Source of the DNA: Lytechinus pictus | Taxonomy: Eukaryota | Assembly (NCBI RefSeq): GCF_037042905.1 | Contig: NC_087251.1 | Location: 18,168,001 to 18,232,000 of the forward strand | Direction: 5' to 3' | DNA: 64,000 bases | Shown: piece after piece, positions 1,614 through 49,386 of the stretch | Layout: the number at the start of each line of letters is the position of its first letter | Numbering within the stretch: the stretch's first letter is position 1 | Notes under the pieces: generated by a model | What the model saw: the letters and a program-made list of their open reading frames with translations, nothing else | What the model was told of the DNA's origin: nothing | The model's database searches: none | Position numbers and translations under genes: made by a program

Positions 1614-1792
1614 TCATTCACACTCGAGAAAGCCAAGTTCAAACTTCATCTTTTCATTTGAACTGCCAGTATCTCTGAAGTGTAGCCTTGTGACCGGAAG
1701 TCGATCTCTATCAGTTAGGTAGCCATCATCTGTTAACCACATATCTGAAGAACGGTAACAATTGCAGGGAGCATCCACGCTGTAGTGACAAG
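1614..1792 (-). pseudogene. Duplicated copy of terminal exon 6 of the secreted gene
   Basis: Near-identical to 12706-12884 with intact acceptor and TGA. Substitutions ALC->APC and FGDTGGS->FRDTGSS. Confidence 0.8.
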
Positions 1793-2593: not shown

Positions 2594-3474
2594 GCACACA
2601 CTCGACCACGGGACACACACACACACTCACCCCCACACCCTCACCCTGATACACACCATACACCCTTCCAAACACCCGTCATCATTAAGTCTCATCCCTA
2701 TTATAACGCATACAGGTATAATGGGTAAAAAAATCATGTAAAACATTTAAAAAAATCCCTACTAAGCCGAGATACCCCTCCCCCAACCAACCTATCCCTT
2801 TGTGATTCATTTCCTTAAATTAGCTAACGTCCTTTTGAAACTGGTAGTGGTATTAGATTGTTGCATTTTAATTGGTAGTGAGTTCAAGCATTGAGCCCCC
2901 CCCCCCCCTTGAACCTAAAAGTTTTCTTACCTGATTCGGTTTTTGCTTGGGGGATATTTAAAGTTAGTGGACCTGACCGTGTATTATTATGTATGCCTAT
3001 AAAATGAAAATCTTTCAAAAAAATATGTCGGTGCCTATCCTGTCATTATCTTAAATATCATTATAGCAATGTTGTCACTTCTGTTTTCTTGTAGCGTTAC
3101 CCATTTTAATTTATTTAAATTTTCTTTGGAAGATGAATACCATGGAGATCGATTTATTATTCGGGCAGCCCTAGTTTGTAGCTTTTGAAGAACTTTCTGA
3201 TTAATCAACCCGCAGTTATCCCCATACAGCATCACAATAGCTTAAATGTGACACTATCGAGGAATTATAAACAATGATCAGATCATTTTCGTCGACGAAG
3301 TTCTTTATAGACTTTAACATGAATAAACCACCATTTACTTTCTTCTGAACATAATTAACATGGTTTTGCCATGTTAAATTAGAATCAAGAATAACACTTA
3401 AATATTTACATTCATCTACCTTACGTAATGGAGTATTATCAATATGTATCTGAAACAGCATTTTCAATTTTACA

Positions 3475-4432
3475 GAGCCTTTGTTTGGTACCTAGTACCC
3501 ATGGTTTGAAAGGAACACAAATACAAGGACACTAAGAACAAGAAGAATATGTATGGAACCTAGAAGTAGAACTGATTGCTACAGGAACAGCCCAGTCCCC
3601 TTCTTTACGAGACTTTTAAACTCCCATGGACTGTGAAGAACTATGTTTTCATACCTTTGTTGTTTTATTTGTAGGTTCTCTTAAACTGTAACTGACTTTT
3701 GAAATATTTTTTTATTGTTAATTTCTGCAGTAATCATTGAACTTTCTTTTCCGAAAAGTCACTGGCTCATAATGTTATAACCCACTTTAAATTTATATTT
3801 ATATTTTTTGTACAGATCATATTACTTCAACGTCCTATTAGTTTTAATTTTAATTCCTTTTGAGATAATTCTTTATATATGATTATCATTTATGACTCCG
3901 ATTCCTACAACTATTGTTATTACCATCAACGCAGTGTTTCTTTAGAATCATTATCAAGCATATCGAGAACAATCCCAACCCAGATTACTGTTTCATTTAT
4001 AAATCCTTTGTATGAAATATACATTTTCCTCCTTCAATTTGACCCTAATTAATAGCTTTCTTTTGTTTCTTTTCTAAAAAAAAGCAAGTATTATTTTATA
4101 CAATCCACTCTTTAATCTACATGTATTGTTATTCATTCAAAATTTGTTAGATATATATTTATGCTAAAATGTTCATTATGTTAAAGGTATATACATTTTA
4201 GTCTACTCCTTACCCCTCCTTACCTTTCCCCATTCCTGCTTTTGACATTACTTCTCCCTCTGTATACTTACCTTTCCAATATTATACATTAGTATACTTT
4301 GTTTGGTTTTTTTATTGTTTTGCTTGTTTGTTTACTTAAATTTTACTCTGTACAAATTCATGTAATTCAGCCTTTGGCTGCTAATTGAATGTTTATCACA
4401 ATAAATACCATTTATCTATCTATCTATCTATC
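3475..4432 (+). mobile_element. Insertion in the LINE: probable 3' end of another retroelement with AATAAA and (TATC)n tail
   Basis: Interrupts the RT reading frame between ORFs 4420-4776 and 3216-3467, and ends cacaataaataccatttatctatctatctatc. Confidence 0.55.
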
Positions 4433-6344
4433 TCTAGTACAATGTACTCGGTTTTATCGATGTTTAAATGTAGTTTATTTTTAATCAGCCATTTTCTAAT
4501 GTTTTCTAGATCTTCATTAATCCTAAAACATAGTTCAGTGGGGCTTTTGCCTGAGCAATAAATCATCGTATCATTTGCATACAAGCTAACTTTACAATGT
4601 TTTAAAATAGACGGTAGATCATTAACAAATACGATAAAAAGTAGAGGTCCCAATATTGATCCTTGGGGAATACCACCCAGGATAAGGCGAGTTTGTGATA
4701 TATGATGGCCACTGACTCTTGTAACCTGCCCTCTTCCTGTCAAATAATTCCATTTTGTGCACTCTATCCAGGCCATACTGACATAATTTATCGATTGACA
4801 ATTCGTGACTTACAGTGTCAAATGCTTTGCGCAGATCAAGCATTACAGCACATACAATACGTTATCAAATTCATCAAACCAAGCATCGGTGATTGAAAGC
4901 AGTGTTGTCATGGTTGCATGAAGGGGCCTATACATGTATAGAGCCTAATTGGGAAGCATTCAAGAGATGATTAGAATTAAAGTAATTGTACAATTTGTAA
5001 AAAAAAACTATTTTTTCTAAGATCTTTGATAAGATCGGTAAAATAGAAATCGGTCTGAATAATTAAGTTCATTAGAGCCTCCTTTGTGTAATGCAGTCAC
5101 GATGGCATTTTCCCACATTTCAGGAACTTCACCGAATATAAAAGACAGGTTCATTATATGTCTTAAGGGCTGAGTGATATATTCGGCAACTAATTTGATC
5201 AATTTAGCGGGTAACAAATCGCACCCCATAGCTTTATCATTTTGGTAAATTCAAGATATACCTATACGCCTCACTTTCATTTACCAGTGTGAAATGTAAC
5301 TGTATTTTGAGGCAAATAATGGAAAGAATACGTAAGTTCGGAATTAATTGTGGGCTCTATAATTGAATTTGCTAACTTGGTTCCTATATTAACAAAATGT
5401 TCATTTAATTTTTCGGAAATCAGAATAGGATCATGAATATCAATTTCATCACATTTTATAAACGGCATTTCATTTGATTTATTGTTTCTATTCAATAGCA
5501 TATTCAGATTTTTCCTTGTTTCTTTTACATCGCCTTTCGAAGTCTCGATTTTTTTTTTAAAGTAAATCTTTTTCTTGTACTCCAGTTTTGTTGTTACAAA
5601 ATTCTTAATTTTCTTATATGCATTCCAATCTTCATCCTGATTATCTTTAACTGCTTTTCTTTTCATACTGTCTCTTTTACGAATCATTGCCAGAATATCT
5701 GCATCAATCCATGGAAAGCTGTCCCTTTTTATCTTCTTTTTTTCTTAATGGGACAAATTTATTACATGATAACGAAAAAGAATTTGTAAAAGAATTGGCA
5801 GACTCATCAACCGTTGAAGAACTAGACACATCTTTGTAATTAGTATTACCTACTTCTTCACGAAATGCGTCGTCGTTGAATCTTTTATAATTCCTGTACA
5901 CCTTGTACGCATGATGACATTTTTTAAACCACCTTTTTCCAAATAAAGCAAAAACAAGTGAATGGTCACTAATCACGGTGTGTATAACGCCGCTCTCTTC
6001 TATATTTTAGAAGTATTGGAAGTATAGATAACATCAATGAGAGTTTGAGACTTTTGATCGACTCTGGTTGGTGTCTCAATTATTTGACGTATGGAATAAC
6101 AATTCGTCAATTCAATTAGTCTCTTTTAATAGCAGCTGGGAGGGAAAGCTAATAGATAACAATTTAAGTCCCATATTAGGATACTATCCTTAGATTCATC
6201 ATCCAACTTGGCTAACACATTTTCAATAACATCAAACAAATACATGCTACAGCCAGGTGGACGGTACTAGGCTAGTATAATAATCGCAGCAGACTTTGGT
6301 TGTCTCACTTTTACAGCAATCATTTCAAGGTCTTCTGACATTAA

Positions 6345-6932
6345 AGGTCAACTCCACCCCAGGAAAATTCTGACTTGAATAAATAGAGAAAAATCAAACT
6401 AGCATAGTGCTGAAAATCTCATCAAAATCGGATGTAAAATAAGAAAGTTATGACTTTTTAAAATTTTGCTTATTTTTTACAAAACAGTGATATGCACAAG
6501 GTGAGTCAGTCGATGATGTCCATCACTCACTATTTCTTTTGTTTTTTTTATTGTTTGAATTATACAATATTTCATTTTTTTTATATAGATTTGACAGTGA
6601 GGATCAACTTGACTGTACCATATAGTATTAAACAATGCTAATTCCACATGTTCAGGGAGGAAATAATTGTTGTATCACTTAAAAATGAGGAGAAAAATGA
6701 GAATATTTCATATAAAGAAATACAAAATAAAAAGTGAGTGGATGACATCATAGTCTCCTCATTTACATACCAGCCAGGATGTGCATATAACTGTTTTGTG
6801 AAATTAAGCGAAACCTTGAAATGTCATATCTTTCTTATTTTACATCCGATTTTGATGAAATTTTTAGTGTTATGCTTGTTGGATTTTTCTCTTTTTATTC
6901 AAATCAATGTTTTGTTGGGGTGGACTTGTCGT
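6345..6932. mobile_element. Kolobok/piggyBac-like MITE with TTAA TSD, nested in the LINE endonuclease
   Basis: TTAA|AGGTCAACTCCACCCC...GGGGTGGACTTGTCGT|TTAA. Removing it restores RSDLMSEDLEMIAV. Family members at 48395-48980 and partial copies at 577-890 and 11659-11970. Confidence 0.85.
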
Positions 6933-7816
6933 TTAAATCTGATCTTAATGTATGTTCGAGGCGTTTTTCATACAAGTACGCCTCCACCCTGCCTATTTCT
7001 GTCTTTTCTATATACCATTTAATCATTAATATGTATTTGTTTGTTATCAATCGTGTCACATAATCGGGTCTCATTCAGTCCCAAGACATCGAAATTATGT
7101 TCATTTACTAAAATGTTCACTTGATCTAGGTTTGGATATAGAGTCCTGACATTAAGATGGGCAATGCTAATTCCGAGCTTTTTTACAGACGATGATTTGT
7201 GAAATTTAGTAGTAAATATTTTATTAGAAATGTCAAACCTTCGGTCAGTAGCTATTGTAACTTCTGACATCAAATCGTCTTGTGTATATGAGCTTAATAA
7301 AGATAAATTGGGACTGATAGAGCAATGCTCCATTTCATTATGTTAAGTTACAATCGCATTTTGTTGAGATATAAAATAATATGTGAGATTATATGATGAT
7401 AATTGTATGATGATGCCAAAATAGGTTGCCTCCTGATTTGAGAGCTATACAGTAAAGATGTGACTTTATAATCACGTTTGTCCAATGTTGTCCATTGAGG
7501 AAAATGTTTTTTTTACGTTCATCTGCATCTGCGTTCACTCGTGTATATTAAATCTTTTCGGATTACTTGTTATGCATGTGGTGTGTCATATAGCTAGCAA
7601 GACTATTTTCGTTTATATATTTGTCAAAATATGTCTCTCTCTCCTTATACTCTCCTTTCCTCCCCTTCTCATTATGACTAGTTTCAGGTGAATAATTATA
7701 ATAAAAAACTTTCTAATACGCAAATATGGTGATCACAGTCACCCCTTCCTAAATCGCCACCCAAACCATCCGCAATAATTTCAACTTTTTTCTCTTGACG
7801 AAACCCACGAGCCTAC

Positions 7817-7999
7817 CTGGTAGTGTACAGATCTTTGGTGATGTAGGGCATTTAAAATGGTCGACATCGCCATGGTTGCGGATCATCATTTGGCGGGAAG
7901 CCCATTTGATGACAAGTTGAATCGTCTGTCCCGATGCAGTGTTTATACTTTTACAATGTATAATGTTATCATTGCATGAATTCACACCGACCGCTCCAT
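7817..7999 (-). pseudogene. Duplicated copy of exon 2 of the secreted gene (orphan paralogous exon)
   Basis: Near-identical to 21662-21844, frame open, AG and gtaggc sites kept. Homology with the main copy stops about 7 nt into the acceptor (~8006). Downstream intron ~7350-7816 matches ~21225-21661. Confidence 0.75.
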
Positions 8000-8109
8000 C
8001 TGTTGACGCAGCAATCATCCACGACATCATCATCGACACCATCATTAACCACGTTACCGCCGAAATGAGAACCATCATGAGTGTTGTCGACACTCGACCA
8101 TCTATGATA

Positions 8110-10263
8110 TTAGTATCTCTTATCATCCAAATATCAACAGATTGATCTTTATTGTAATCGTAAATCCTATCCATCCGTTCAATCAAACCAATTACTTGGT
8201 TAACTTCAACGATAATTTAATGCTTTTAGGTGATTGTAAAGCTCTTGTATGATATGTGAGTGACAATCATGACAATGAGAAATATCTATTTTTGTCGTCT
8301 TCAGAGTGTTAATATGTTAAGATGGTGCCCTCGACTGAGAGAAATATAATTTCTTATCATCCAAATATTAACAGATTGTGTGGTAAATTTCAATCGCACC
8401 GTGCGAGGGAGAACAAATCCTATCTTTATTGTAATCGTAGATCCTATAGCCATCCGCTCAATCGAACTAATTACTTGGTTACCTTCAACGATAATTTAAT
8501 GCTTTTAGGTGATTGTAAAGCTCTTGTATGAGATGTGAGTGACATTGAGCAATATCTATTTTTATGGTCTTTAGAGTGTTAATATGTTAAGATGGTGCCC
8601 TGGACTGAGAGAAATATAATTTGAACAAATAAATCATTAGACACTAAAATACTTTCATCCAAATCGGTCAAGGAGTAAAAAAGTTATGACATTTTTCATT
8701 TTTGCTTAATTTCGGTGAAAACTAGTTCTATGCATGTCTTCATGAATATCCTTTGTGCAACTTAATCTATTATAAGGGAGAAAACACTTTCATGGAGGCT
8801 TGCGTTATAAATGTTTTCAAAAAATATTGCTGAACTTTAAAAGTGAAGTTATTTGCTATCAGATTTTGATCACATTTTCAGCGTAGCGTCTATATATTTT
8901 GATAGAGATAGTCATTTTCCGCCTGGAGTACTCCTGAGTTTGCATACACTCTATAAAGAGGGTTTACCCAATATTAGGTAAAATGGGAACATGCCGATGG
9001 AATAGCCCAATTATATGGGGTAAAAGAATAAAATACCCAGCAAACATGCATGTTTTTATAATTTAAAGTGGGTTTACATTTCATTTTTCATTTGATTCTT
9101 GTTTCTCCACACTTTTCAAAAGCTTGACAATGAAAAATAAAATGAAAAACAAACGTTAGCAATTTCATGTAAATCACAGCTCAGTGTAAAGCAAATATCG
9201 TCACGATGGCCTCGGTGTGTGGGGGAGTGGGGTGGGGCGCAATGCACTCTTCGAAATGTTTTGGGCAAGGAAACAATTAAAAAAGGTAAGAGATATCTTT
9301 AAATCAATTTTACTAGCTAAATTCCACGTGTTCTTCATGATTAAGGTCTACTTTTATTCGCATAACTATTTTTTTCATTTTAATTCAATCATTTAAAAAA
9401 TCAATATACAAACCAAAATATATACAAAATCATTCATGAATATACAGTATAGTTTAAATGATTAGGGTGCCCCTAAATGCAAATCATTTTCACTAACTTT
9501 TCAAAAGTAAGTGGTGCACCATAATCGGCACCATCATTAACCACCATCATTAGTGTCAGTATCCCTTATCATAAAAAATATTCAATGTGTGGTAAATTTC
9601 AATTGCACCGTGCAAGGGAGAATGAATCCTATCTTTATTGTAATATTAGATCCTAGCCATCCACTCAATCAAACCAATTACTTGGTTACCTTCAACGATA
9701 ATTTAATGCTTTTAGGTGATTGTAAAGCTCTTGTATGAGATGTGAGTGACAATGAGCAATATCTATTTTTATGGTCTTCAGAGTGTTAATATGTTAAGAT
9801 GGTGCCCTGGACTGAGAGGAATATGATTTGAACAGATAAATCATTAGACACTTCAAAAAAATTCATCCAAATCGGTCAAGGAGTAAAAAAGTTATGACAT
9901 TTTTCATTTTTGCTTAATTTCGGTGAAAAATAGTTCTATGCATGTCTTCATGAATATCCTTTTTGCAACTTCATCTATTATAAGGGAGAAAACACTTTCA
10001 TGGAGGCTTGCGTTATAAATGTTTTCACAAAAATATTGCTGAACTTTAAAAATGAAGGTATTTGCTTTCAGATTTTGATGGCATGTTCAGCGTTTATTTA
10101 AAAGGAGATAATCATTTTCAGCCTGGAGTTCTCCTGAGTTTACATACACTATAAAAAGAGAATTTACCCAATATTAGGTAAAATGGGAACATGCCGATGT
10201 ATTTCATCGGCATGTTCCCATTTTGGGGGTAAAAGAATAAAATACGTAGCAAACATGCGTGTT
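8110..10263. repeat. Local tandem duplications: ~240-bp unit (8110-8352) and ~700-bp units (8353-9055 and ~9555-10263)
   Basis: Repeated blocks ttacttggt.accttcaacgataatttaatgcttttaggtgattgtaaagctcttgtatga in three copies, and long colinear identity between the two large copies. Confidence 0.9.
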
Positions 10264-11382: not shown

Positions 11383-11572
11383 GGCGTTGTGGCATGCGCC
11401 TATATATAATCCAAGCTGTGGGGGAAGTTACAAATTGATGCAGAGTTTCGAGGTTCGAGCCCTGGTCACGTCTTTCGGATGGTTACGTTAAAGGTCGGTC
11501 CCAGACGTAAATAATCATATCTGATTGATACACGTCTGACAAAACTCAAATACACACACAGTCACACACACA
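11383..11572 (+). mobile_element. tRNA-derived SINE with (CA)n tail, absent from the duplicate copy
   Basis: B box ggttcgagccc, CA-repeat tail, flanking CTTG direct repeat. Empty site agccttgaaat at 481-491. Confidence 0.8.
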
Positions 11573-12705
11573 CTTGAAATCGCTCCCCCGGTTGTCCCGA
11601 AAGGGTGCGTTAAAGGCATAGAGATATATATTACTAATTTGCTTATCTCTATGGTTAAAGGTCAAGTCCACCCCAAAAAATGTTGATTTGAGTAAATAGA
11701 GAAAATCAAACTAACAAAACACTGACGATTTCATCAAAATCGGATGTAAAAGAAGAAAGATAAGATATTTTTAAAATTTCGCTTGTTTTTCACAAAACAG
11801 TGATATGCACGAATCAGAGACGTGTAAATGAGACAGTCGAAGACTATGTCCTTCACTCACTATTTCTTTTGTTTTTTATTGTTTGAATTATACAATATTC
11901 AATTTCTTACATATTTGACAATAAGGACCGACTTGACTGAACACATCAAACTCGTTGAATTCACTTATGTTTAAAGAAGATTAATAAACAAAATAAATAA
12001 AATACACATTATAAGCGAGCTTGTCGACGTAACACAAATTATAATTGAGGTTAGTCCTATATTCGTAGTCAGTGGAGTAATAAGTAAACCATTTGAGGGA
12101 GAGGTTCTGAATAGTCGTGAGAGAGAGAGAAGCAATAGTCAGAGTCAATTTTTGTACCTTTTTAACTGATAATATAATTGTGCTGCAGATAGAAAATAAT
12201 GTCCTGAAAATCATTTCATACCTTACTTTTTCCCTTTCATTTCCTTTTTTTTTCATTCTCGTTCAAGAAACTTTGAAATTGAGAAAAAATACATTAAATG
12301 AAATCAAAATGTGTACTAGTTGTAAACATTTTAAAAACATTTTTAATGTCATGCCCTGTACTAAAATCCGTTTTTCCTGTTCATATTGAGTGCACTTTTT
12401 TGCCATATCAGTTTATTTGCAATCACACAGATGTAATTTCGCTATGTTGACTACACAGACTTGGGCAGCTTCATTACAGATGCTCTGATATTCCAAGAAA
12501 ATTTCACCGATTCTTAAAAAGGTCATGTATTCAAGTTGTTTTATGTCAACAAAATAAATTACGATTTTAAAGTTTCTGAGCAACTAATCGCATAAAGGAA
12601 TTAAACATAATATTATTCAGAGCTTCAACACACAACCGGTCAGCGTCATATCAACACAATAATTTGCTAGGGTACCGGTGTACTCCAATTATTGTTATAT
12701 TATTC

Positions 12706-12884
12706 TCATTCACACTCGAGAAAGCCAAGTTCAAACTTCATCTTTTCATTTGAACCGCCAGTATCTCCAAAGTGTAGCCTTGTGACCGGAAGTCGATCTC
12801 TATCAGTTAGGTAGCCATCATCTGTTAACCACATATCTGAAGAACGGTAACAATTGCAGAGAGCGTCCACGCTGTAGTGACAAG
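12706..12884 (-). CDS. Same gene, terminal exon 6 (TCHYSVDALCNC...DDGYLTDRDRLPVTRLHFGDTG...LGFLECE*)
   Basis: Acceptor ccctgtttag, 179 nt, TGA at 12706-12708. The CNC...DxGxLTxxxxLPVxxxxFGDT...LGxLxC motif is typical of Caspr/neurexin IV. Confidence 0.9.
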
Positions 12885-13452
12885 CTAAACAGGGAAACGA
12901 AATAAAAAAAATGAATTTAAGCTTTACCCACATAAATGTATGTAATCTCATAATAATTGTTTTCTTTGTATCCGTTTCGTGCCTAAAGATGCATCCATAG
13001 CAACTAATCAATAAACAACAAATAGAGAAGAGCATTCACCTTTTGACCAAAACAACGAAAGTGAAGGTAATCAATGTTTCATTATGTTTCTTGTTCGATG
13101 CCATTGGAATTCTGAGAAAATGTTAAATTATTTTGGGACTCTACGAGACAGGACGAGAAGTCGAGAACCTTCCTGTTATGAAAAAAATGGATTTGAATAC
13201 TCGCACTGGCTTACGTGCAAAGTTTCCCTAAAAGTGAAATTAATTTGTCCGAATAATGTCAGAAAAACACAGGCATATTTTTGCGGTAGCGTTAAACTGT
13301 TATAATTAAAGGATTATTCCATTAGATTGGATATTTGCTGTTTTTTTTTTCTTTCTTTTTATTGTTCTCAGACCAGATATGAGATGCCGGGAAGGTTCCC
13401 GTCCTCTTCCGTAAATTCTTTTAAAATAAAGGAAAGTACGATATTACTTTAC

Positions 13453-13749
13453 TTCGATTTATGCCGCAGAGACATCCTACGACGTCACTCGGAGCGTTCC
13501 CCCAGTTTGGCATCACAACACCTTGTCTTGATACCCAATAAGCAGTGTGATCGCCATCATTATCGTAGATGTGAGTGTTAAAACATGTAGCTCTGATGTA
13601 TTGTCTGCAGCTCTCGGAGTGATTTAGAATGGTAACGATTGCATCCATGGATAAGGTATACACCACATCCTTCCTGTAAGAACCATGCTCTTCAAATCCA
13701 TTGGGAACGGTTTGCTCACCAACCACGTCATGGGTTATGATAACTTTCC
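13453..13749 (-). CDS. Same gene, exon 5: core of Caspr/neurexin-IV-type fibrinogen-like domain
   Basis: Acceptor tttgcaag, donor CGAA|gtaaag, 297 nt, phase 1-1. Motifs IxHD, GSYxxxxxY, SxxCxQxIxxxC, WVSRxG, WG...CxCG are typical of the Caspr fibrinogen-like region. Confidence 0.9.
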
Positions 13750-14059
13750 CTTGCAAACGTTTAATCGAGAGGAAAAAAAAGCATTTGAAATACTTGTAAA
13801 ACTATGTTAAATGTTCACGCCAAATTTGCAATCTTCCTTGTGTTCACAATTAAGTCTTTTTTTTTGGCCTGACTTTTTAAATCACTAAGAAGTTGTAATT
13901 GTATTTTTTTTGTAGATCGAGAACCTTCAACCAATACGACGTAAATAAATGATAACGCTGTCGAAAGTAATGAGACAGTCTGTCATTTCCGAGTTAATTT
14001 GGATGTAGCTCTTTCTAAATCAAAGTATCTGAAATATAGCGTGTACATTCATATTGCAA

Positions 14060-14460
14060 AAAACCTTGTTTAAGATAGTACACACTGCAACACACCTTAT
14101 CTAAGATAGTACACAGCACAACAAAACCTTATCTAAGATAGTACACAGTGTCACAAACCTTGTTTAAGATAGTACACAGTGTAACAAACCTTGTTTAAGA
14201 TAGTACACTGTGTAACAAACCTTGTTTAAGATAGTACACCGTGTAACAAACCTTGTTTAAGATAGTACACCGTGTAACAAACCTTGTTTAAGATAGTACA
14301 CAGTGTAACGAACATTGTTTAAGATAGTACACAGTGTAACATACCTTATTTAAGATAGTACACACCACAACAAACCTTATCTAAGATAGTACACAGCACA
14401 ACAAACTTTATCTAAGATAGTACACAGTGTAACAAACCTTTAGATAGTACACAGTGCAAC
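14060..14460. repeat. 31-bp minisatellite (AAACCTTGTTTAAGATAGTACACAGTGTAAC), about 13 copies
   Basis: Head-to-tail units with 31-nt period and no unique spacers. Degenerate units resume at ~15000-15060. Confidence 0.95.
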
Positions 14461-14465
14461 AATAC

Positions 14466-14986
14466 CCCGGGGGGGGGGGCACTCAGTATATAAAACATAG
14501 TGGGTATGTGCCGCGGAGGGGACCCCCATGTTTACACTCAAATTTCCGTTCCAGGGCATAGCATTTTCATCTTATTAAGAAAAAGAACTAAGAAAGCCGC
14601 TCCGAAGCATAGCATTTTATTCTTATCGAGAGAAAATAAGAAAGAAATCCGCTCCAAAGCTTCGCATATTTTTCGTTACGCCGTTCCGGTCGCATTGATC
14701 CGCCACAATTTGGTGAAAAGCGGCCGCTGAGCGCTGTCCGACCATCGCCTCTGCGCGAGCGCACCCCGCGCCCGGGCCTCTGCATACACGTATGCCCGTT
14801 CCATAGGGATGCACCGTGCGCAAGCGACCCGTTCCAAGGACCCCCGTTTTCACAAGCATTTGTAGTTCCGAAGCCCGTTCCGAGGACCCTCCTTTTTACA
14901 ATAAGTCCGCTCCAAGGCCCCCGGTTTTTGTCTCGCCCGCGGCACACACCTACCAATTTTTTGGTCGAGTGCCCCCCCCCCCCCGG
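14466..14986. mobile_element. MITE with CCGG(G)nCACTC TIRs and 8-bp TSD AACAATAC
   Basis: TSD at 14458-14465 and 14987-14994. Termini cccgggg..gcactc / gagtgc..ccccgg, with subterminal tgtgccgcgg inverted. Confidence 0.85.
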
Positions 14987-16145
14987 AACAATACTCTTTG
15001 ACAAAACAAATTCTTAGATGGTACACAGTACAGCAAACATTACCTAAGAAATTACAAAATACAACGATCTTTATAATGCAAGGCTGACACTTGCACGACT
15101 TTTGGTCACGGTTTTGCCATCTCAAGTCGTGTCAATTTGGGGCATGATAGGAGGCTCCCGCACTCTTCACGACTAGTTCACGCAGAGTACACGACGAGTT
15201 CATGAATAGTCCACGAATGCGTGCCCATCAATGTCCACATTGACACGAACTGGCACGACGAGTTCAGGCATAGTTTGCACATCGTTTGGCACGACGAGTT
15301 TGCGCAATTCAGACGATGTCGTGCCGACTTGGGCACGCCATATAAAAAGGGGGCCTCCCCAACCCCTGGTCATTTTTTGATTGACTGTGGAAGAGACAAC
15401 ATGCTGAATGTCAGAGTCACAATCATTGCAGGGAAGAGAAGATGCCTATACCTGGCCGCTGATCTAGACATTGTTGAAAAGCAGCAGAAAAGGCTAAAAG
15501 AGGAAGAAGAGCAAGAAAAAGCAACCCCACCTCGAAGAAATCCACGAAGGAAAGTGTATGGGTCAGGGAATGAATGAGCAGAAGGCACGATGTTGGACAG
15601 TATAATAGTCTACTGACCTGTTCCAAGAGATGGTTGAAAAGTTATCCCCTGCAAAGAAATAATATAAACAAAAAGAAACAAAAAAAGATACGAAAAAAAA
15701 GACAAGGAAAAAGAAACGGAAAAGAAAAGGGGGAAAAAGAAAAGGGGGAAAAAGAAAAGGAGAAATGAAAACGCATAATAAATGTAAAAAAATCCCCTTC
15801 CCCACTCACCCAAAAGAAAACAAAAAAAACGAAGAAAATGAAGTAAATGAAGTAAACGAAAAGAGAAATTGAAAAGAAAGATAAACGGAAAAGAAACAAA
15901 AGGAAAGATGGATTTTTTGGGGGGATGGTAGTGGGTGAGGGGACTTTCTTGCATGTCTTCATATTTCCTTTTTTAGTTTCTTTTTCTTCTTTTTTCTTTT
16001 GTTTGCTTTCGTTTCTTTTTCGCTTTATTTTTTTTTCTTTTTATTTCTTTTTTTTGGGGGATGGGGAGTTTTGTTATTTTTGTCCTTAATTTTTTTCGTT
16101 TATGGAATGGCGAGTAGTTTCCAGGAAGTCCTATTTATACCCCTG

Positions 16146-16316
16146 GGACCAGTTTCATAAAGCTGTTCGTAAGTTACGAACAACTTTACGCACGACTGGT
16201 GACCCTTTCTTGTGGTAAATGATATCCCTATGTAGCTGACTTATGTATAAGAACATGTTCCAGTCGTTCGTAAAGTTGTGCGTAACTTTACGAACAGCTT
16301 TATATGAAACACCACC
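16146..16316. mobile_element. Palindromic MITE nested in the Harbinger element
   Basis: tttcataaagctgttcgtaagttacg ... cgtaactttacgaacagctttatatgaaa inverted repeats, CTG on both flanks. Confidence 0.65.
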
Positions 16317-16663
16317 CTGGACCGACGCGAGAGCCACTGTCGCGTAGTAGTCTAAACTACTCATGAACTCTTCGTGAACTGCTCGTGCCATGCGCACACC
16401 ATTCGTAAAGTGCCTAAACTAGTCGTGAACTAATTGATCATCGATGCGTGAAGTACACGTGTCCGTGTCAGTGGGAAGGCACGGCCACGCTGCGACGCGC
16501 ACTAATTCTTTATCATGTCGTGAACTACTCGTGAACTCGACGTGAGCTGTTCGTGAACCATTCGTGGCAGTTCGTGATAGTCGTGGCATGGCACGCGCTG
16601 CCACGCATCCTCCCTCATCTTCTCGACGAGTTCACAGACAATTTGCGCATAGTTTACGACCTG

Positions 16664-16791
16664 GGTCCCGTAACACAAAGGTTAGCGATTGATCGTACGC
16701 TTGATTTTCACGATTGATTGTACATTGTAGTCAATGGAATCAATCGTAGAAAAATGTTCTACGATCATTGCTAAGTTCTGTGTTACGGGCC
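16664..16791. mobile_element. Palindromic MITE (GGTCCCGTAACAC...GTGTTACGGGCCC) with CTG TSD, nested in the Harbinger element
   Basis: Terminal inverted repeats. Related copies near 33670-33822 and 39238-39354. Confidence 0.7.
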
Positions 16792-17083
16792 CCTGGTCGC
16801 TAAATTTTGTCGTGACCAAAATTGTGAACAAATTCTCGATGCGACATGGCACGCCGTCACGACGGGTTTACGCACACTTCACGCCAGTTTACGAGTAGTT
16901 TGCGCACCGGCATGACTCGCGTCGTGCCTATAGGGCCTACTTGCCACAGAATCGTGCAAGTGTCAGCCTAGCTTAATACTCGGTTCAACACGTTCACGCT
17001 TTTCATTTTGCACATTCTCCAAATGGGGCTAATGATAACGTTTGTTGTGACTCAATACATTAAACAATGTGGAAAATGTTTAC

Positions 17084-17194
17084 CGTTTTGACATTGTACT
17101 GGTTCGGAAAGATTTGAGTTCAGGTCTTTTAGATCAAGAAGATAGGTCCGGTTAAGTTCTGGGCATAGGCCTATTCGTTGAGCACGGGGTATAT
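17084..17194 (-). CDS. Same gene, exon 4 (DIPRAQRIGLCPELNRTYLLDLKDLNSNLSEPVQCQN), start of fibrinogen-like module
   Basis: Acceptor ttctaacacag, donor AACG|gtaaac, 111 nt, phase 1-1. The C...YxxD...PVxC pattern matches the start of FBG-like domains. Confidence 0.8.
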
Positions 17195-17668
17195 CTGTGT
17201 TAGAATAATGTATAAAGGAATTAATGTATTTTGTCATCCAACAATATTTACAAAAAGAATTGTTATAAGATTGAATAGGTATGCTGTAACTAGTTTGGTT
17301 CCATTACGTGTGTGATGTATCAAGAAGAAGCTTTCCATTTTCTGTATTCCCATTCTTAAGTGACCTTGAGAAATACCACCCTGGTAGTATGAAAAATACA
17401 TTTGAAATAATACATCTTACTTCGCATCACAGAAAACATTCCTGGTCAAATGACCCACTTACGTGAAATTTTATTTGCCCCCTAATTGACCATCTTTACA
17501 ATTAATGAGAGTCAAAGTGAGTAATATCGTACTTGTATCAGAACATGTTTTTGCCGCATGAGAGATGGCTCATTCACTATTATATAACACTTATGACACA
17601 ATAACAGGAACCACTTGTCAGTGCATGGAACTCTTTAAGACGTGACCCATGCGTGTATATATATATAT

Positions 17669-18270
17669 GATCCTTGGCCGAGTCATGCCAAAGACTTTTA
17701 AAAATGGGACCTTCTGCCTTCTTGCTGGGCGCTCAGCATTTAGATTGGAGAAGGATAATAATTAAAAAAATAATAATAATGACAAAAATTTACATTTATA
17801 TAGCGCTTATTACACTTTGTTTCTAAGCGCTTTACATTGCAATTATTATTACCCCGGTCATCGGATCCTTGCATGCCCGCAAACAATGTATGCAATTTCT
17901 CCACTCCCTGGTGAGCATTCAAACAAGAGTTCCAAGACTCAATTGATAGGTATACTACATAGGCTTTCGCATCCTACCGGGTACCCATTTTACACCTGGG
18001 TGGAGAGTGGCAAAGTGTGGATTAACGCCTTGCCAAAGGACGCTAGGCCGTGGTGGGATTCGAACACATGACCCTATGATCGCAAGACAAGAACCGCTAC
18101 ACCACGCCGCTTCAACAGTAATAAAATATTATGTTATGCAGGGCCCGCTTGTAGAGCAGTTTCCTAACTGAAGTGGCTACCCTGGATAAATAAAACGTTA
18201 TTATTATTATTATTATTACTTTTATCATTATTATTATTGTTATTATTGTTATTATTACCATTATTATCAT
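17669..18270. mobile_element. Nested SINEs: plus-strand SINE with (TTA)n tail interrupted by a minus-strand tRNA-SINE (~17790-18113)
   Basis: Minus-strand B box gtgttcgaatccc and core acccaggtgtaaaatgggtacccggtag. Outer element ends aataaaacg(tta)n. Confidence 0.6.
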
Positions 18271-18323
18271 TATCTTCATGTATACAGTTAAAAAGTAAAA
18301 TCATTTTAAATAAGCAGGCCTAC

Positions 18324-18425
18324 CTTCAAAGTGATCATTGCTACCATCACCCGGACAGATGCACGTATAACTGTCATCAGTCTCCATACAGGTACATCCA
18401 TTCTGACAGGGAGAACTCAGACAAT
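18324..18425 (-). CDS. Same gene, exon 3: EGF-like domain (DCLSSPCQNGCTCMETDDSYTCICPGDGSNDHFE)
   Basis: Acceptor tttgtacag, donor GAAG|gtaggc, 102 nt, phase 1-1. Classic CxSxPCQNG...YxCxC EGF pattern. Not shown in the ORF track. Confidence 0.88.
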
Positions 18426-20964
18426 CTGTACAAATTTAGAATTAACATGATTAAGGGGGTTAGTAATCAGAATTTGAAGCAGCAGGATTGAAAAGGATTA
18501 GCAAAATTATGTTTAAAAAAAAGTTCGTGAAATCGTGGAAAACTAGGAATGTGCCCATTTTGTCAACGATTCTTGAAAATGGCTTGCCGGGTATAAAGGC
18601 CTACTTAATATCAGCATGGACCTACTACTATTGTTGTAGGTCCATGATATCAGTGGAAGATTTTCAAATATGCCTTTCTGGAAATCCCAGGGGGACGCGC
18701 CCCCTACCCAAAATAGTAGAGGGACAGTTGATATTGATATCAAACGTCCCTACTATTTTTGGTCTTTTATGATGGAAAGAAATACATCATTCAAAATCCA
18801 AATAAAACATGTATTTTGGACGAGATGACCTTACTTTTTGGGTGATAACCTTTTTTTTTCCTTGCTTGTCGAATTTATTTTGGTATAAATGACCTTACAT
18901 TTGGGGTGATAACCTACCTTTGAGGAGAGATTTCCGCCCTTGGGGAGTTACATTCTAATAAATTCTTAATGCATAATTACCAGCTAAAAACAGTTTGGTG
19001 TAACTTTGAGAATAGTTGATTAAACTATTATAAATGGTCATTTGTTTGTTTAAATCTATCAAAGTATACTTAACATCTATTCACTGTTCGGCAGTTGCCC
19101 GTAAAGTTCATATCTCCAAAAATAAAACAGCTCGGTAAAATCTCGGTCATGTGCATTAATGTACTTGACTACTAACATTGAGTAAGTAATTGAGGAGAAA
19201 TGAGAATTTTAACATTTTATTGATTTACTGAAAGCAAGCATTGATTTGTCATATTCAGTTATCTGCCTGAACAATGAGCATTTAGATGATTATGAACTAC
19301 CCCAAATATATCAATAATCGTGATAATGGGCATTTATATGAATAGTAAATGGAACACACGGGATTCTGATTATGTGACAAACAAAGTTATCTGACTGGCT
19401 CCAAATACGTTACAATGGGAACGAATTTTTTGTTGAAATATATACAAAAAGTATTATTATTTTTTAATACTTTAATACTTAGTGGCAAATCTATAAGGGG
19501 GAGGGGCACGGAATTAAGAGCAATCAATGTATGTAAAATACCAGAGCATGTACCGGATCCTGCCCTTAGCACATTCGAAAACTTAGGAATGAATACTCTT
19601 TATACTGCATAAATGTATTCTTTTCCTAACAATTTCTCATGATCAGTTTAATTTATGGACAAATCAGTGGTGGGTCCAGAATCTTAAAATGGGGGAGGGG
19701 CCTATAATCGGGGGAGCCACCAACATTTTCAAATTTAAACATGATCTAACAAGTTGTAGAGGATACTACCATAAACCCCTATGATGATACGTCACAATAC
19801 AGGGGCCGGGGATGGGTTTTCAAAGTGGGGGGGGGGGCTGACCATGCAAAAAATCACAATCCTATGGTCATTTATACATTTTTGTACATGCTTTTGGAAA
19901 AAGTGGGGGGGGCTGAAGCTCCCCGCCCAACCCCCCCCCCCCCGCTTTCGCGGCCCCTGCAATACATTGTGCTCACTCAACCATGAACATAATGATATCA
20001 AAATTGTGTGTGGAGTGGCTAAATGATGGATAGTAAAACAGCATAACACCATAAAATTCACCTAAAGACAACATTTGCCCAACTTTGTATTTGCACAATC
20101 TGAAAAACGACTCTTGTGACTTTCAAAAATGGTCATTTTTAATTCAATCTTTAATTACTCATGCATGACTCAAGCGATCAATCTTATTTTTCCCCAGGAG
20201 TTGCTTAATGAGTGTAGAAAACCACCTACGGAATATCATATCTCAAAATAATTCCGTTCAAAAGTTACAGCAATTTAATTTAGGGGGGACTTACTTTTTT
20301 TGTTGTGTATATATCAGTTGATATTCAATTAAGGTTGTTCTTATACAATTGAAGTCTACCTAACCATATAAACTTAATTTGAATCAATATAGAAAACCAA
20401 GCAAGCGCTATTCTGGAAATTATTTAAAATCCGGTTCTAAAGTAAGGAAATCAAAGAATTTTAAAGTTTTATTATCATTTATTAAACAATTACTTTATAT
20501 GGACGTCACAGGTGACACGCAAAACATGCAAGGGTCTTGGGTTGTCGAATTATTACTATCTCTATTTATTGTGTACTTTCTTTGTATGAAAATTATATGA
20601 AATATTTCATGTTCTTCCTCTTATTAATGTAAAACATTAGTTTATTTTACCTTGAACATGTGGAATTGTCATTATCCTAACATGTTATTAATCAATCAAG
20701 ATTTTCCTCCTGATCAAATCTACACAAATTCACATGTTAAAGAAAAAACATGAGAAATAATTAGTATGATGTATGATTATTGCATATCATCTGTGTCGTG
20801 CATACACTACTAGTATTCGGAGAAAATACGGGACACTTCAAAATCCATTATTTTCTCGTTTTACATCCAATTTGGATGAAATATTCAGTAAGGCGTATTT
20901 ATTTTGATATTCAAACCAAATTCTTCTTTGGGTGAACTTGCATAGAATGATAATAAAAAAATAA

Positions 20965-21205
20965 TGTAGGATTTGGCACACGAATCCACATTGCTAAGTG
21001 CTCAAGGCGCTCCTATACTACCCCGGCTAAGTTAGTCTACCGATTCCGGTGCTCACAGCTTTTTGAGGAATTACTACCTGCCGGTACCCATGCCATTTAC
21101 CTCACCTGGGTTGAGTGCAGCACAATGTGGGTAAATTTCTTGCTGGGAATCGAACCCACGTCCCTCAGATTGAAAGACGAGAGTGTTAACCACTAGACCA
21201 CGGCG
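20965..21205 (-). mobile_element. tRNA-derived SINE
   Basis: Minus-strand head gccgtggtctagtggttaacac...gggttcgattccc, with core related to the 17790-18113 SINE. Confidence 0.65.
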
Positions 21206-21661
21206 CGTCGCGGCGCCCCATATATATTATAACTTAGATATAAAATAATACACTTTTGTATGGTCATACCAAAATAGGTAACTAGCTGATTGGAGAGATG
21301 TGAGATTGGCAAAGATGGAGAGATTGGCAAAGATGTGACGTTATAATCACTTTTGTCCAATTTCGCCCATTAAGGAAAATGGTTTATTACGTTCATCTGC
21401 GTCCACTCGTGTACAAGCTTTTCGGATTACTTGCATGTGTTGTCATAGCTAGAAAGACTAATTTCGTTTATATATTTTTCAAAATATGTCTCTTTCTCCT
21501 TATACCCTCCTTTCCTCTCCTTCTCATTCTGACTAATTGCATGTGTATAATAATAAAAAAAAATCTATTTCCCAAATATGGTGATTACCCCCTTGGCCAC
21601 CTCAACAAACCATCCCCAATAATACCAGCCTTTCTTCTCTGAACGTAACCCACAAGCCTAC

Positions 21662-21844
21662 CTGGTAGTGTACAGATCTTTGGTGATGTAGGGCATTTAT
21701 AATGGTCGACATTGCCATGGTTTCGGATCATCATTTGGCGGGATGCCCATTTGACGACAAGTTGAATCGTCTGTCCCGATGCAGTGTTTAAACTTTTACA
21801 TTGTATCACGTGATCATTGCATGAATTCATACCGACCGCTCCAT
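21662..21844 (-). CDS. Same gene, exon 2 (DGAVGMNSCNDHVIQC...YKCPTSPKICTLP)
   Basis: Acceptor tttattttcaacag, donor CCAG|gtaggc, 183 nt, phase 1-1. The other two frames stop early. Paralogous copy at 7817-7999. Confidence 0.8.
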
Positions 21845-22044
21845 CTGTTGAAAATAAAGAAGCATTAATAAAACGTAACAATAAGAAAAAAAAAAGTACA
21901 TGGAGATTAAATTAATATTTTCGTCTGTCAATTTTGATGTCTAAAAGTGATATAAACGCAATTTTTCGGTCTGCTCAAAAGTTTCCCCACTGGCAATAAT
22001 TCAACTCACGAGCATTTATCAAATTTTCTTCATCTTTCTTAATT

Positions 22045-22078
<34 letters not shown>

Positions 22079-22089
22079 TTTTTACATAC

Positions 22090-22135
22090 CCGAGAATAAG
22101 ATAAACATCAGTGGAATAACAATCACCCACTCCAT
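22090..22135 (-). CDS. Secreted EGF + Caspr-type fibrinogen-like protein, coding exon 1 (signal peptide MEWVIVIPLMFILFS)
   Basis: ATG at 22135, hydrophobic run, donor G|gtatgt after 22090. 46 nt, phase 1, joins exon 2 to give ...LFSDGAVG, a plausible cleavage site. Confidence 0.8.
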
Positions 22136-23563
22136 CACTGTATGTATCTCCCCTCTCTTTGAAAAGATTTACACCAAATGAAATGAAACCATACTACTCT
22201 TTATCGTTGCAAACGGGGTCAATAAATACAGTATGATTTCTTCATCTACTCAGCTTCCACATTCATTCCAGCCTCAGGTATTGATTACATGCACTCGGAA
22301 TAATCAATTATAGACAAAAAAAGAAATACACTTTGAGTCCTCTTTAAATCCTATTTTCAGATTTGGTTAACTTCCACAAAATAATGAATCCACTACATTA
22401 CTAGATTATATGCCCCGATAACAGTGTGGAACATAATATGCGTTTTATTGAATAGATTTTGAGATCATAAATGAACATTTATTTTGGATATGAAACTGTA
22501 CTTCTCAAGCATGGAATGATCTTTCTCTACAGCTTTCTGATATTCAGTTACAAAATTTTGAAGATATAGGCCTATATCGTGTTTAAAGGGGCCTGTTATT
22601 TAAAGAAATATTTGTTACTTTGTTACATATTACTACATAATACATAAATAATATTTGTTACATACTTATCTGTGATCCTAATAATAAGTTATTTTACCTT
22701 GTTATAATTGTTTGAAATGTAAACTTTTTCAATTCAGCTTTTGCCGCAAAGAAATTTTTTCAATAAACCATTTTGAATTGAATTGAATTGAAGATCACTA
22801 GAGGGAGCGCTAGATACTTCATAATGGCAGCTATTACTCAAGCATTTGTTTTGCTTATAAAGTTTGCTGCTGCATCTTTTCATTACGTTATCTTATGCTT
22901 ATATTGTATTTTTGTCTAAATTTATGTTACTGCTGTTCTGTTATAAATCTGTCACTTTACAATGTAATTTGTCATAATTATGTCTATGCTAAATTTATTT
23001 TGACAATAAATGTAGAAACTCCTGCACAAACACCTTATTTGAATTAAAAGAATAACGGTTAAAATCAAATGCCTATGAATGTTAGATGATACTCGAGTAT
23101 ACTTCACTTGATTGACCTTTTATGCCAAAGCTTTACACTAGACTCAATAGGCCTAAAGTTGGGCTACGCAAGTCTTAGTTTAAAGTTAAGCTCAGAATTA
23201 AGATATATGAAATAGTTTTCAGGGAAGAGTTTAACTTTGATCCATATCATATGTTTATTCTTTCGTTGGTTTTCCTTCTTTATTTTTAATTCACAATACA
23301 CTGCATGCATTTAGCACAGTGACCATCGAGATGATCTTTACAGGATACTTTTAAAGGTTAAAAACAAGGCGGAATACAGAACTAATTTTTTTAGTGCTAA
23401 AATCTGATTTATGAACTTATAATAATTTTCGACTCGGGCAAAGTCTTAATCTACAAGACCGTTGTTTCTCTATTAATTTGCCACAGGGCTTACACTGTAG
23501 GCCTATATGTCATTGTGTTTTATTACAAACGTAATTCCATTATAGAATAATAATGGTGATAGA

Positions 23564-23604: not shown

Positions 23605-23637
<33 letters not shown>

Positions 23638-23652
23638 ATATATATATATATA

Positions 23653-24034
23653 CAGTGCGTCCCAGAAAAAACGAAACCGACATTTAGCGATGATTTATCA
23701 TAACTTAATCGCAAAAACAATAGACAAATTACCTACCATTGTAAAGCTTAGAATCTCCTCTTTCATCTGAAATTACTTAGATTATTTCTCATTCATGCAT
23801 GAGTGAGTAAAAACAATATGAAGCGGGGATGCCAAAAAGTCACTTGGCGGGCTGTATCTGGGTTTCCAAAAGAAAACCACATTTTCAAAAAGTTCAATAT
23901 CTGCTCTTTAATTTGATACCTCAATTACAGAAAATGGTCAAGAAATAACAAAGTTCTGGTTATTTGAAATAAGGCTTGAATTTCAATAATTTCATAAAAT
24001 TAAGAGGTTTTACAGGCTAGCGTTCAAACTCACT
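23653..24034 (+). mobile_element. Tc1/mariner-like non-autonomous element fragment between (TA)n tracts
   Basis: TA|CAGTGCGTCCCAGAAAAAACG terminus, homologous to 1983-2355. Confidence 0.65.
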
Positions 24035-27424: not shown

Positions 27425-27607
27425 TGAAGAGCGCCATCTTTCTTTTTCCTAAATTATTTTGGTGCAGCAGCACTTGGACTGGAGTCTTTTGGAGACCATT
27501 TTTTGTACATTGGGAACAGAATTATAGTTATACCTTCTGGAAGTTCACCGCGAGGCATATTCATCGCATTCCTAAATCTAACTCCTATATTTTAAGAAGC
27601 TGTGCAG
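27425..27607 (+). promoter_or_regulatory. Candidate non-coding first exon / TSS region of the CEP170-like gene
   Basis: YY1-like GCGCCATCTT at ~27430 and consensus donor CAG|GTGAGT at 27607/27608 in a CpG-richer zone. No transcript evidence. Confidence 0.35.
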
Positions 27608-49307: not shown

Positions 49308-49386
49308 ACGTTCGTGAATGATTCGAGGATTCCAGAGGAGACCTACATCCAGTTGAAGAAAGGCGACTCCATCCGGTTTGGATATG
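49308..49386 (+). CDS. CEP170: CEP170-like exon 3, FHA domain (TFVNDSRIPEETYIQLKKGDSIRFGY)
   Basis: Strong match to the CEP170 motif TFVNDxRIPExTYIxLK...RFGYD. Acceptor attgcag, ends at the U12 donor ATATCCTTT, 79 nt. Confidence 0.93.

Follow-up and report, generated by a model that had tools for sequence, protein, structure and literature searches.

Proteins of the Caspr/CNTNAP/neurexin IV type are defined by a discoidin domain and four LamG domains and contain an EGF domain followed by a 'fibrinogen-like' domain (PMC10084454). The NEC module is a small N-terminal alpha-beta3 unit that neurexins and collagens have in common with the fibrinogen family (Pradel et al. 2004, PMC2211786). Collagen C-propeptides carry a stalk coiled coil and two inter-chain cysteines (PMC5353611 and PMC13351861), and their trimerisation is driven by calcium, for which the ligands in collagen I are D59, N61, and D67 (numbering of PMC13351861). 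Skeletal proteomes include 'contactin-associated' proteins, with XP_781951 as an example in a table of PMC5460417, and such proteins also appear in the skeletal proteome of bioRxiv 10.64898/2026.03.24.713908; in both cases they may be short forms or true Caspr. A literature search, with most subscription papers outside its scope, returned no description of the urchin subfamily treated here or of the stand-alone family.

The window, a 64-kb stretch of Lytechinus pictus DNA, contains a gene from a large, little-studied animal family that databases mislabel as Caspr or neurexin-4; within this family it is an ordinary and somewhat damaged member, and its closest named relatives are from Lytechinus. 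We consider it likely that this gene encodes a small secreted protein with a C-terminal COLFI/NEC-fold domain and belongs to a small tandem urchin subfamily of this family, which is neither collagen nor Caspr. Its architecture, including the segment encoded by exon 2, is already known from RefSeq models of three urchins, namely S. purpuratus XP_011663050 ('contactin-associated protein-like 2', 303 aa) and XP_011670846 ('neurexin-4-like', 301 aa) and the 330-aa models XP_041467639 of L. variegatus and XP_054759823 of L. pictus. Labels of this kind were foreseen in the initial annotation, which expected the protein to be misnamed 'contactin-associated protein-like'. Like the window gene, the four models encode a hydrophobic leader, a Cys segment, an EGF domain, and the C-terminal domain followed by the stop, and they are 51-65% identical to it in exon 5 and exon 6, each taken separately. 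The four models have a canonical six-Cys EGF, the D-P-D-G loop, an N-terminal segment with three Cys, and a leader rich in Met; in the window gene, the EGF is broken, the loop reads D-L-K, the segment has four Cys, and the leader lies on an exon of its own. The probable orthologue, judged by sequence, is L. variegatus XP_041467735 ('notch homolog 1-like', 152 aa; P0179), which is identical to the window gene at 51 of 61 aa in exon 2 and 32 of 34 in exon 3; this model has another first exon and a short exon-4 acceptor, and it ends in intron 4 without exons 5 and 6.

Gene structure and transcript support

The six-exon gene model of the initial annotation was reproduced in all its parts. On the minus strand, exon 1 (22090..22135, 46 nt) encodes a short hydrophobic leader, a probable signal peptide (residues 1-15); exon 2 (21662..21844, 183 nt) encodes 61 aa with four Cys; exon 3 (18324..18425, 102 nt) a degenerate EGF-like domain; exon 4 (17084..17194, 111 nt) most of the NEC unit, the base region of the COLFI-like domain; exon 5 (13453..13749, 297 nt) the core of this domain; and exon 6 (12706..12884, 179 nt) its end and the stop codon. 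Joined, these exons give 918 nt and 305 aa plus stop, with no internal stops, and all five introns are GT..AG and in phase 1. Within exon 4, position 17170 provides a second acceptor in the same frame, which is the one used in P0179. A possible alternative first exon (27534..27558, minus strand, phase 1, eight codons, without a signal peptide) matches the N-terminus of P0179, and that gene model is its only basis. The N-terminus is hydrophobic (19-residue Kyte-Doolittle mean 1.96), the top 19-residue mean past residue 45 is 0.83 with no TM-like stretch, and the window protein may be cleaved at its signal peptide and is probably secreted.

Spliced contigs from the gene are present in two related species, and its expression is weak. 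Exon 5 is represented by contigs without differences in X1 (X1 and X2 are data sets that are only presumed to be RNA) and by X22 RNA reads at about 3x, and no expression was seen on it in X21. The predicted junctions are borne out in part. The exon 5-exon 6 joint was found directly and exactly in an 845-nt contig (X2 record 9) that ends 23 nt past the stop, and the exon 4-exon 5 joint was not found in contigs; none of the 15 joints listed was an exon junction of the gene (473 further joints lie beyond these). The length of the contig equals 15+46+183+102+297+179+23, so that exons 2 and 5 are separated by 102 nt instead of 213, and the middle exon that it lacks is most likely exon 4; we infer its use of exon 1 from depth arithmetic (54 nt in that bin). 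As the sole contig across the gene has this middle exon missing, the complete six-exon splice form was not found, and exon 4 is intron-containing in X2. Contigs of the 3' UTR span 12380-12697, and a candidate poly(A) signal AATAAA lies at 12412..12417 on the minus strand, about 290 nt past the stop.

These contigs bear on the view that the locus is just a piece of an ordinary Caspr gene, broken off or wrongly interpreted, towards which only the database names of its relatives point. The transcript contig passes through the exon 6 stop into the 3' UTR with no LamG or TM exon following, and the 64 kb contain no such exons. When five full-length Caspr-type proteins were compared with the window, the significant matches were confined to exon 5, exon 6, and a second copy of exon 6 (exon 6'), with one weak match of the Caspr discoidin region (E 0.006) in intron 2 and no LamG match. 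Furthermore, S. purpuratus has a separate Caspr of 1303 aa. A Caspr fragment is therefore extremely improbable: the gene is real and spliced, and its product is a stand-alone protein that, as first described, ends directly after the domain and has no LamG or TM segment.

Fold of the C-terminal domain

The fold was predicted for the S. purpuratus paralogue P0005, which is ~57-60% identical in the domain and served as a proxy for the window protein; an initial prediction from a 3-row alignment (pLDDT 32) was set aside. The P0005 model has a pLDDT of 94-98 over residues 141-303, and the exon-2 segment and EGF reached 35-68 in the second prediction. Foldseek matched the model to the procollagen III C-propeptide at E 3e-9, and VIA aligned it with the procollagen C-propeptide at Z 14.7 (rmsd 4.0, 177 aligned, 18% identity), the next match having Z 6.4. 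Matches to carbohydrate-binding modules, at Z 4-6, are background. Fibrillar procollagen C-propeptides (COLFI, PF01410; PDB 4ae2, 5k31) align with the domain in whole-domain fold and in the calcium-loop motif, and the fold predicted across the whole domain is the procollagen C-propeptide (COLFI/NEC) fold. By sequence, the window domain is below the Pfam COLFI cut-off (exon 6 alone E 0.18), and searches of PDB sequences found no close solved relative.

The initial description of the domain as fibrinogen-like throughout is not supported by this model. The FReD fold with its A, B, and P subdomains was rejected for the whole domain, as the structural match is poor (best FReD E 6e-3, TM ~0.2, rmsd ~14) and at the sequence level only the N-terminal unit matches, the family profile aligning with fibrinogens over about positions 90-142. 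Fibrinogen would thus share only the N-terminal NEC unit, which corresponds to exon 4 and the start of exon 5. NEC names this small unit only; in the window protein a COLFI-type C-terminal part follows, and the NEC unit is the most altered region of this paralogue.

With such a fold, the protein might be a free, calcium-dependent homotrimer like the procollagen C-propeptide, displaying three N-terminal arms. In addition to the whole-domain match, the family D-P-D motif falls on the calcium loop of collagen in the alignment (both Asp in 54 of 82 rows), some relatives have collagen repeats or coiled-coil-like N-termini, and there is the precedent of calcium-trimerised collagen (PMC13351861). However, the collagen stalk coiled coil and inter-chain cysteines have no counterpart in the window protein, which, unlike fibrillar collagens, lacks a Gly-X-Y triple helix, has an EGF directly before the domain, and has extra C-x-C and C-N-C disulfide motifs. 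Of the calcium ligand positions, the family does not conserve the third, and the window paralogue has lost the second: its exon 4 loop has changed from D-P-D to D-L-K, keeping the first Asp and replacing the second ligand by Lys. Many relatives also have the domain in tandem or internally. A homotrimer prediction for P0005 residues 106-303 scored 0.01, in a run in which the alignment was unused and the controls were not folded, and is given no weight for or against a trimer. We regard the homotrimer as quite unlikely. The window protein would instead be monomeric or only weakly oligomeric, since it lacks the coiled-coil stalk and inter-chain cysteines of collagen and has a changed calcium loop.

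Family distribution and phylogeny

Relatives of the domain comprise 1018 clusters (50% clustering, E<=1e-3). Among the best 150 of these, 94 end no more than 12 aa from the domain, 79 are single-domain proteins of up to 520 aa, and 42 have at least two domain copies. The domain had been taken to sit normally inside Caspr between LamG domains, but LamG was found in only 8 of the 149 relatives scanned, and the sequences indicate a mobile, mostly C-terminal module. Its partners include Ig, PAN, F5/8, collagen repeat, CUB, Link, SRCR, C-type lectin, C1q, TSP1, and VWD. The family profile scores the window protein at 185 bits over residues 120-305, and 53-58 of 98-99 exon 5 residues are identical to those of four urchin paralogues. 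Stand-alone 'neurexin-4-like' or 'CNTNAP-like' proteins of 250-450 aa from amphioxus, crinoids, brittle star, priapulid, brachiopod, corals, and Ciona share the C-terminal domain and the misleading names with the urchin relatives and carry different modules at the N-terminus (PAN, Ig, coiled coil, collagen repeat, F5/8).

The suggestion that the gene is a one-off product of exon shuffling, in which EGF and 'fibrinogen' exons came from the urchin's own Caspr/neurexin-IV gene, draws on the EGF-then-domain order seen in Caspr (PMC10084454), on the phase 1 introns, and on the 36-42% identity of exons 5 and 6 to the homologous domain after the EGF in S. purpuratus Caspr (P0072). Quick trees were built from 68 rows (8 urchin, 8 LamG, and the top 52 of the others by rank, out of 151 usable domains) and, for the AU test, from 26 hand-picked rows. 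The small urchin proteins form their own clade (support 98), whereas P0072 groups with other LamG proteins, and a union of the two was rejected (p-AU 0.007, 26 rows). Moreover, many proteins other than Caspr, among them coral ones, have an EGF or another module ahead of the domain. Apart from its separate clade, the window protein differs from Caspr in lacking the discoidin and LamG domains, the TM segment, and the cytoplasmic tail. Lineage-specific shuffling out of Caspr is thus very improbable, although a much older shared origin is possible because the deep branches do not resolve.

N-terminal segments and a partial second copy

The exon 2 segment was initially said to resemble no recognised domain, and it indeed has no match in Pfam (top E 0.07, CD47 V-set, below the cut-off) and no usable match in the ESM Atlas. 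A PAN/Apple assignment was rejected (hhalign probability 0.7%, 9 columns; the profiles were shallow, with 8 and 7 rows). It is not unique, as six urchin proteins have homologues, although only two of the four Cys are kept throughout this set. The segment is 35% identical over 48 aa to P0005 (pairwise E 3e-8), and a profile built without the window lineage recovers exon 2 at E 2e-6; a word search gave one match among three candidates. The segment was not found in any of the stand-alone relatives from other animals listed above (190 proteins searched), and its restriction to sea-urchin family members, judged from these sequences, is provisional because such searches are weak for a fast-evolving piece of 60 aa.

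The EGF identification stands in part. Exon 3 passes the Pfam EGF cut-off (E 3e-5, residues 1-24 only) but departs from the canonical six-Cys spacing, with Cys6 replaced by Phe and an extra Cys between Cys2 and Cys3. Both changes also occur in P0179; in six other urchin relatives, the Cys pattern is canonical.

Parts of a second copy of the gene lie downstream on the minus strand. Upstream of exon 2' (7999-7817, within 7817..8126), the frame stays open and takes in a hydrophobic, Met-rich leader from 8126, and exon 6' (1614..1792) differs from exon 6 at 5 nt; comparison of the window with itself revealed no second copies of exons 3-5. Between exon 2' and exon 6' is a broken LINE-like element (approximate limits 2800..7350, minus strand) with fragmented frames and an RVT_1 match (E 1.5e-14) at 4423-4809. 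P0008, a distant paralogue that is only ~55-60% alike elsewhere, has an N-terminus nearly identical to the copy-2 leader. X1 record 1 corresponds to 7817-8020 without differences, and X1 suggests that the start of copy 2 is joined to copy-1 exons.

Several of these features could mean that the window gene is a decaying paralogue, weakly transcribed and losing function from its N-terminal end (EGF, exon 4), with an intact Lytechinus paralogue of the P0007/P0008 type doing the job. The sixth EGF Cys and the D-P-D loop are lost, exon 4 has indels and two acceptors and is probably skipped, and the first exon 2 Cys is Tyr in L. variegatus. In addition, pN and pS are about equal between exon 2 and exon 2' (0.061 and 0.062, from 11 nt changes), and the second copy lacks exons 3-5 and carries the LINE. 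On the other hand, all six exons are open, spliced contigs exist in both species, and the EGF changes are common to two species that differ at 2 of 34 exon 3 residues. Family-conserved domain positions are kept at 24 of 25 sites, compared with 82 of 162 other positions (P ~1e-6), and pN is 0.022 against a pS of 0.051 between exon 6 and exon 6', from only 5 changes. Decay is unlikely on this balance.

Proposed function and significance

The preferred reading, in which the gene is a genuine member of its subfamily, would make the product a small secreted glycoprotein composed of a leader, an urchin-specific Cys segment, a degenerate EGF, and the COLFI/NEC-fold C-terminal domain. It would act as an extracellular binding module, with the COLFI-like domain attaching to a ligand in the matrix or on the cell surface and the N-terminal parts forming a short stalk. 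By analogy, a role in matrix or adhesion has close to an even chance, immune-type recognition is a less probable but serious candidate, and the absence of any role through decay is improbable.

A wider and speculative proposal, to which we give limited credence, is that the Caspr 'fibrinogen' domain is one branch of a large superfamily of non-collagen proteins in which the procollagen C-propeptide fold acts, throughout animals, as a mobile terminal binding module. One urchin branch would then be a fast-changing tandem cluster of small secreted recognition proteins that swaps leaders and first exons by unequal crossing-over, with the window paralogue being a re-purposed, calcium-independent form and its NEC unit splice-optional.

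As a single gene, the locus carries little weight, since RefSeq models from three urchins already show its architecture and the copy described here may have decayed in part. A small, soluble, naturally stand-alone form of the domain lends itself well to structure determination, and the collagen C-propeptide fold points to testable calcium binding, oligomer state, and ligand. More broadly, many invertebrate 'neurexin-4-like' and 'contactin-associated protein-like' proteins are not Caspr, and a neural or septate-junction reading of these names in transcriptome and skeletal-proteome lists can therefore mislead.

Gene structure and transcripts

The gene is real and newly adds a member to a known, poorly described kind. 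Its six minus-strand exons (22135-22090, 21844-21662, 18425-18324, 17194-17084, 13749-13453, and 12884-12706) splice into 918 nt encoding 305 aa with no internal stop, and all five introns are GT-AG and in phase 1. Five Caspr-type proteins matched the window only at exons 5 and 6, the exon 6 copy, and, weakly (E 0.006), in intron 2. The initial annotation had described the gene correctly. The protein starts with a hydrophobic segment (best 19-residue mean 1.96), has no TM-like stretch past residue 45 (best mean 0.83), and contains 20 Cys and four N-glycosylation sequons. A 31-bp tandem array of 13 copies (14061-14462) lies in intron 4, directly upstream of exon 5.

Four sequencing runs were aligned to positions 7600-23400. 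In X2, presumably RNA from a related species that is 2-7% different on the exons, an 845-nt contig carries an exon-2-like piece (62-244), exon 5 (348-643), and exon 6 with 23 nt of 3' UTR (644-845). The exon 5-6 joint, among the junctions initially predicted, is directly visible here, as is the transcript continuing past the stop. We infer that this contig omits exon 4 and joins exons 1, 2, 3, 5, and 6, because its length equals 15+46+183+102+297+179+23 nt and depth arithmetic places 54 nt on exon 1; alternatively, the EGF may be skipped and exon 4 shortened. Run X1 shows no differences from the window on exon 5 or on exon 2' of the second copy, a downstream partial duplicate on the minus strand (exon 2', 7999-7817; exon 6', 1792-1614). 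Its 370-nt contig comprises exon 2' with 20 bases upstream, then 166 nt that would correspond to exon 3 (102 nt) and 64 nt of exon 4, the length implied by the depth in the exon 4 bin. None of the 15 joints listed is an exon junction (473 further joints fall outside this list), and raw RNA reads cover exon 5 about threefold in run X22 and not at all in X21. These data establish low-level transcription and partial splicing of the gene. Of the spliced 305-aa product first proposed, transcription, splicing, and the exon 5-6 joint stand, whereas no exon 4-5 joint appears in the four runs on 7600-23400; the six-exon form is plausible.

A predicted collagen-type fold in a widespread domain

The fold was predicted for the S. 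purpuratus paralogue P0005 from an 82-row alignment, as a proxy for the window protein. Its pLDDT is 94-98 at residues 141-303 but drops to 35-68 in the Cys segment and EGF. Foldseek returned 17 matches at E<=1e-3, headed by the procollagen I and III C-propeptides (best E 3e-9); all 11 of those listed are procollagen C-propeptides, and the best FReD follows at E 6e-3 with an rmsd of 14. VIA-align superposed 5k31 with Z 14.7 and rmsd 4.0 (177 aligned over 108-303; next match Z 6.4), and Atlas feature matches bear COLFI or GON. Sequence matches to fibrinogens cover the N-terminal unit only, with coiled-coil matches upstream. By this proxy, the domain is predicted to have a COLFI-type fold. The collagen link is partly known already, since a passage in Pradel et al. 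2004 (PMC2211786) names the N-terminal unit NEC, after neurexins and collagens, and a figure legend in PMC3133641 treats NEC and a COLFI-related domain as the same.

With P0003 as query, phmmer found 1018 clusters (50% identity level) at E<=1e-3, of which 501 pass 1e-10 and 40 pass 1e-30. The initial annotation had placed the domain normally inside Caspr (layout described in PMC10084454), between LamG domains, but 94 of the best 150 clusters finish with a complete domain no more than 12 aa from the C-terminus, and Pfam scans show LamG in at least 8 of 149 (one protein was too long; for some, only the best five families are given). Judged from sequence, Caspr proteins are not the main setting of this domain, although the best 150 are ranked by likeness to the urchin query and the clustering merges conserved Caspr orthologues into few rows. 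Among the 94, 79 are single-domain proteins of <=520 aa, 23 of them with a hydrophobic start; some of the short rows could be incomplete sequences. At least two domain copies occur in 42 of the best 150 and a TM-like stretch in 14. Named short members come from amphioxus, crinoids, brittle star, priapulid, brachiopod, corals, and Ciona. Partner domains include Ig, PAN, F5/8, collagen repeat, Link-CUB-SRCR, C-type lectin, C1q, TSP1, VWD, Sushi, Kunitz, and cadherin.

Link, CUB, and SRCR accompany the domain in eight relatives (P0013, P0017, P0018, P0020, P0021, P0026, P0052, and P0079). P0013 is an uncharacterised protein of the frog Pyxicephalus, and vertebrates therefore have the domain outside Caspr. 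An ApeC-CUB-LDLa-LRR 7TM receptor and a long cadherin (P0047, P0139) carry it as well. Short members of the P0055 and P0056 clusters lie on NCBI/ENA contigs of 0.04-1.9 Mb and are placed with coral proteins in the tree.

An urchin subfamily and its exon 2 segment

An exon 5 search retrieved six proteins among 15 candidates. Four urchin proteins named CNTNAP-like or neurexin-4-like share the build: S. purpuratus XP_011663050 and XP_011670846, L. variegatus XP_041467639, and L. pictus XP_054759823. They are identical to the window protein at 16-19 of 55-57 aa for exon 2, 17-18 of 34 for exon 3, 11-17 of 32 for exon 4, 53-58 of 98-99 for exon 5, and 36-38 of 57-58 for exon 6. L. variegatus XP_041467735 (P0179), retrieved by exon 2, is the probable orthologue; this 152-aa model uses another first exon (27558-27534) and a short exon 4 acceptor (17170) and ends inside intron 4. 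Its terminal stretch matches a repeat-rich part of intron 4 (16898-16860, minus strand), possibly a cryptic exon.

Eight urchin sequences, among them the distant P0157, carry homologous exon 2 segments, and a profile built without the window lineage recovered both window copies (E 2e-6 and 2e-7 among 1411 sequences). The segment was found in none of the non-urchin proteins among the 190 searched and has no match in Pfam or Atlas. Of its four Cys, two occur in every one of the eight rows (one of these offset in P0157); the first is replaced by Tyr in L. variegatus, and only the window lineage has the third. We found no description of this subfamily in the literature.

The window EGF lacks Cys6 and has one extra Cys, both changes being common to the L. 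variegatus orthologue and absent from six other urchin relatives. The collagen calcium loop (ligands D59, N61, and D67, from a passage in PMC13351861) aligns with the family's D-P-D, of which both Asp occur in 54 of 82 rows, the third position being variable; the window protein has D-L-K, with indels nearby. It keeps 24 of 25 conserved domain positions vs. 82 of 162 others, which argues that the domain has been constrained for most of its branch, the test being silent on constraint today.

Origin and locus

Membership of the window protein in the family is established. The eight small urchin proteins form a single clade with an SH-aLRT of 98, and in a 26-row tree this clade stands weakly (81) beside stand-alone echinoderm proteins from outside the urchins. 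S. purpuratus Caspr falls among the other LamG proteins; joining it to the small urchin proteins was rejected (p-AU 0.007).

Downstream of the first copy follow exon 2', a broken LINE-like element (RVT_1), and exon 6'. Exon 2' differs from exon 2 at 11 nt (pN 0.061, pS 0.062) and exon 6' from exon 6 at five. Upstream of exon 2', the frame stays open into a Met-rich leader (8126-7999, minus strand) that shares 38 of 43 residues with the N-terminus of the L. pictus paralogue P0008, while the following segment is only ~30% alike, which suggests that old paralogues exchanged sequence recently. Together with the X1 contig, this P0008-like leader suggests that 5' ends were exchanged between tandem paralogues; an assembly error or a third copy would fit too. 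The two L. variegatus paralogues have contigs of equal length and probably lie on one chromosome.

Upstream of the second copy (8145-10263), a 210-bp unit occurs three times and a 680-bp unit twice (~89% alike). A MITE-like interspersed pair with long terminal inverted repeats lies at 6341-6938 and 48390-48986, a second element pair at 1983-2377 and 23631-24034, and further LINE-like frames, without a Pfam match, at 30842-31246, 37080-37448, and 43840-44391. Coding-looking exons of a plus-strand neighbour gene lie at ~49309-49385, presumably resembling a CEP170-type FHA domain, and at 62967-63440, which has no Pfam match.

Possible role

The window protein would be secreted and glycosylated, and its COLFI-like domain may bind an extracellular ligand. 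Unlike the procollagen C-propeptide, it has neither the collagen stalk nor the inter-chain cysteines (described in PMC5353611), and its calcium loop is altered, which makes collagen-like trimerisation improbable. Two proteins labelled 'contactin-associated' appear as Clytia cell markers in PMC12225738. Only skeleton proteome lists of echinoderms and corals, with 'contactin-associated' proteins that may be either the short form or Caspr (PMC5460417, bioRxiv 10.64898/2026.03.24.713908), point to a matrix or adhesion role. Recognition is another possible role, suggested by analogy from the partner domains and the instability of the tandem locus.
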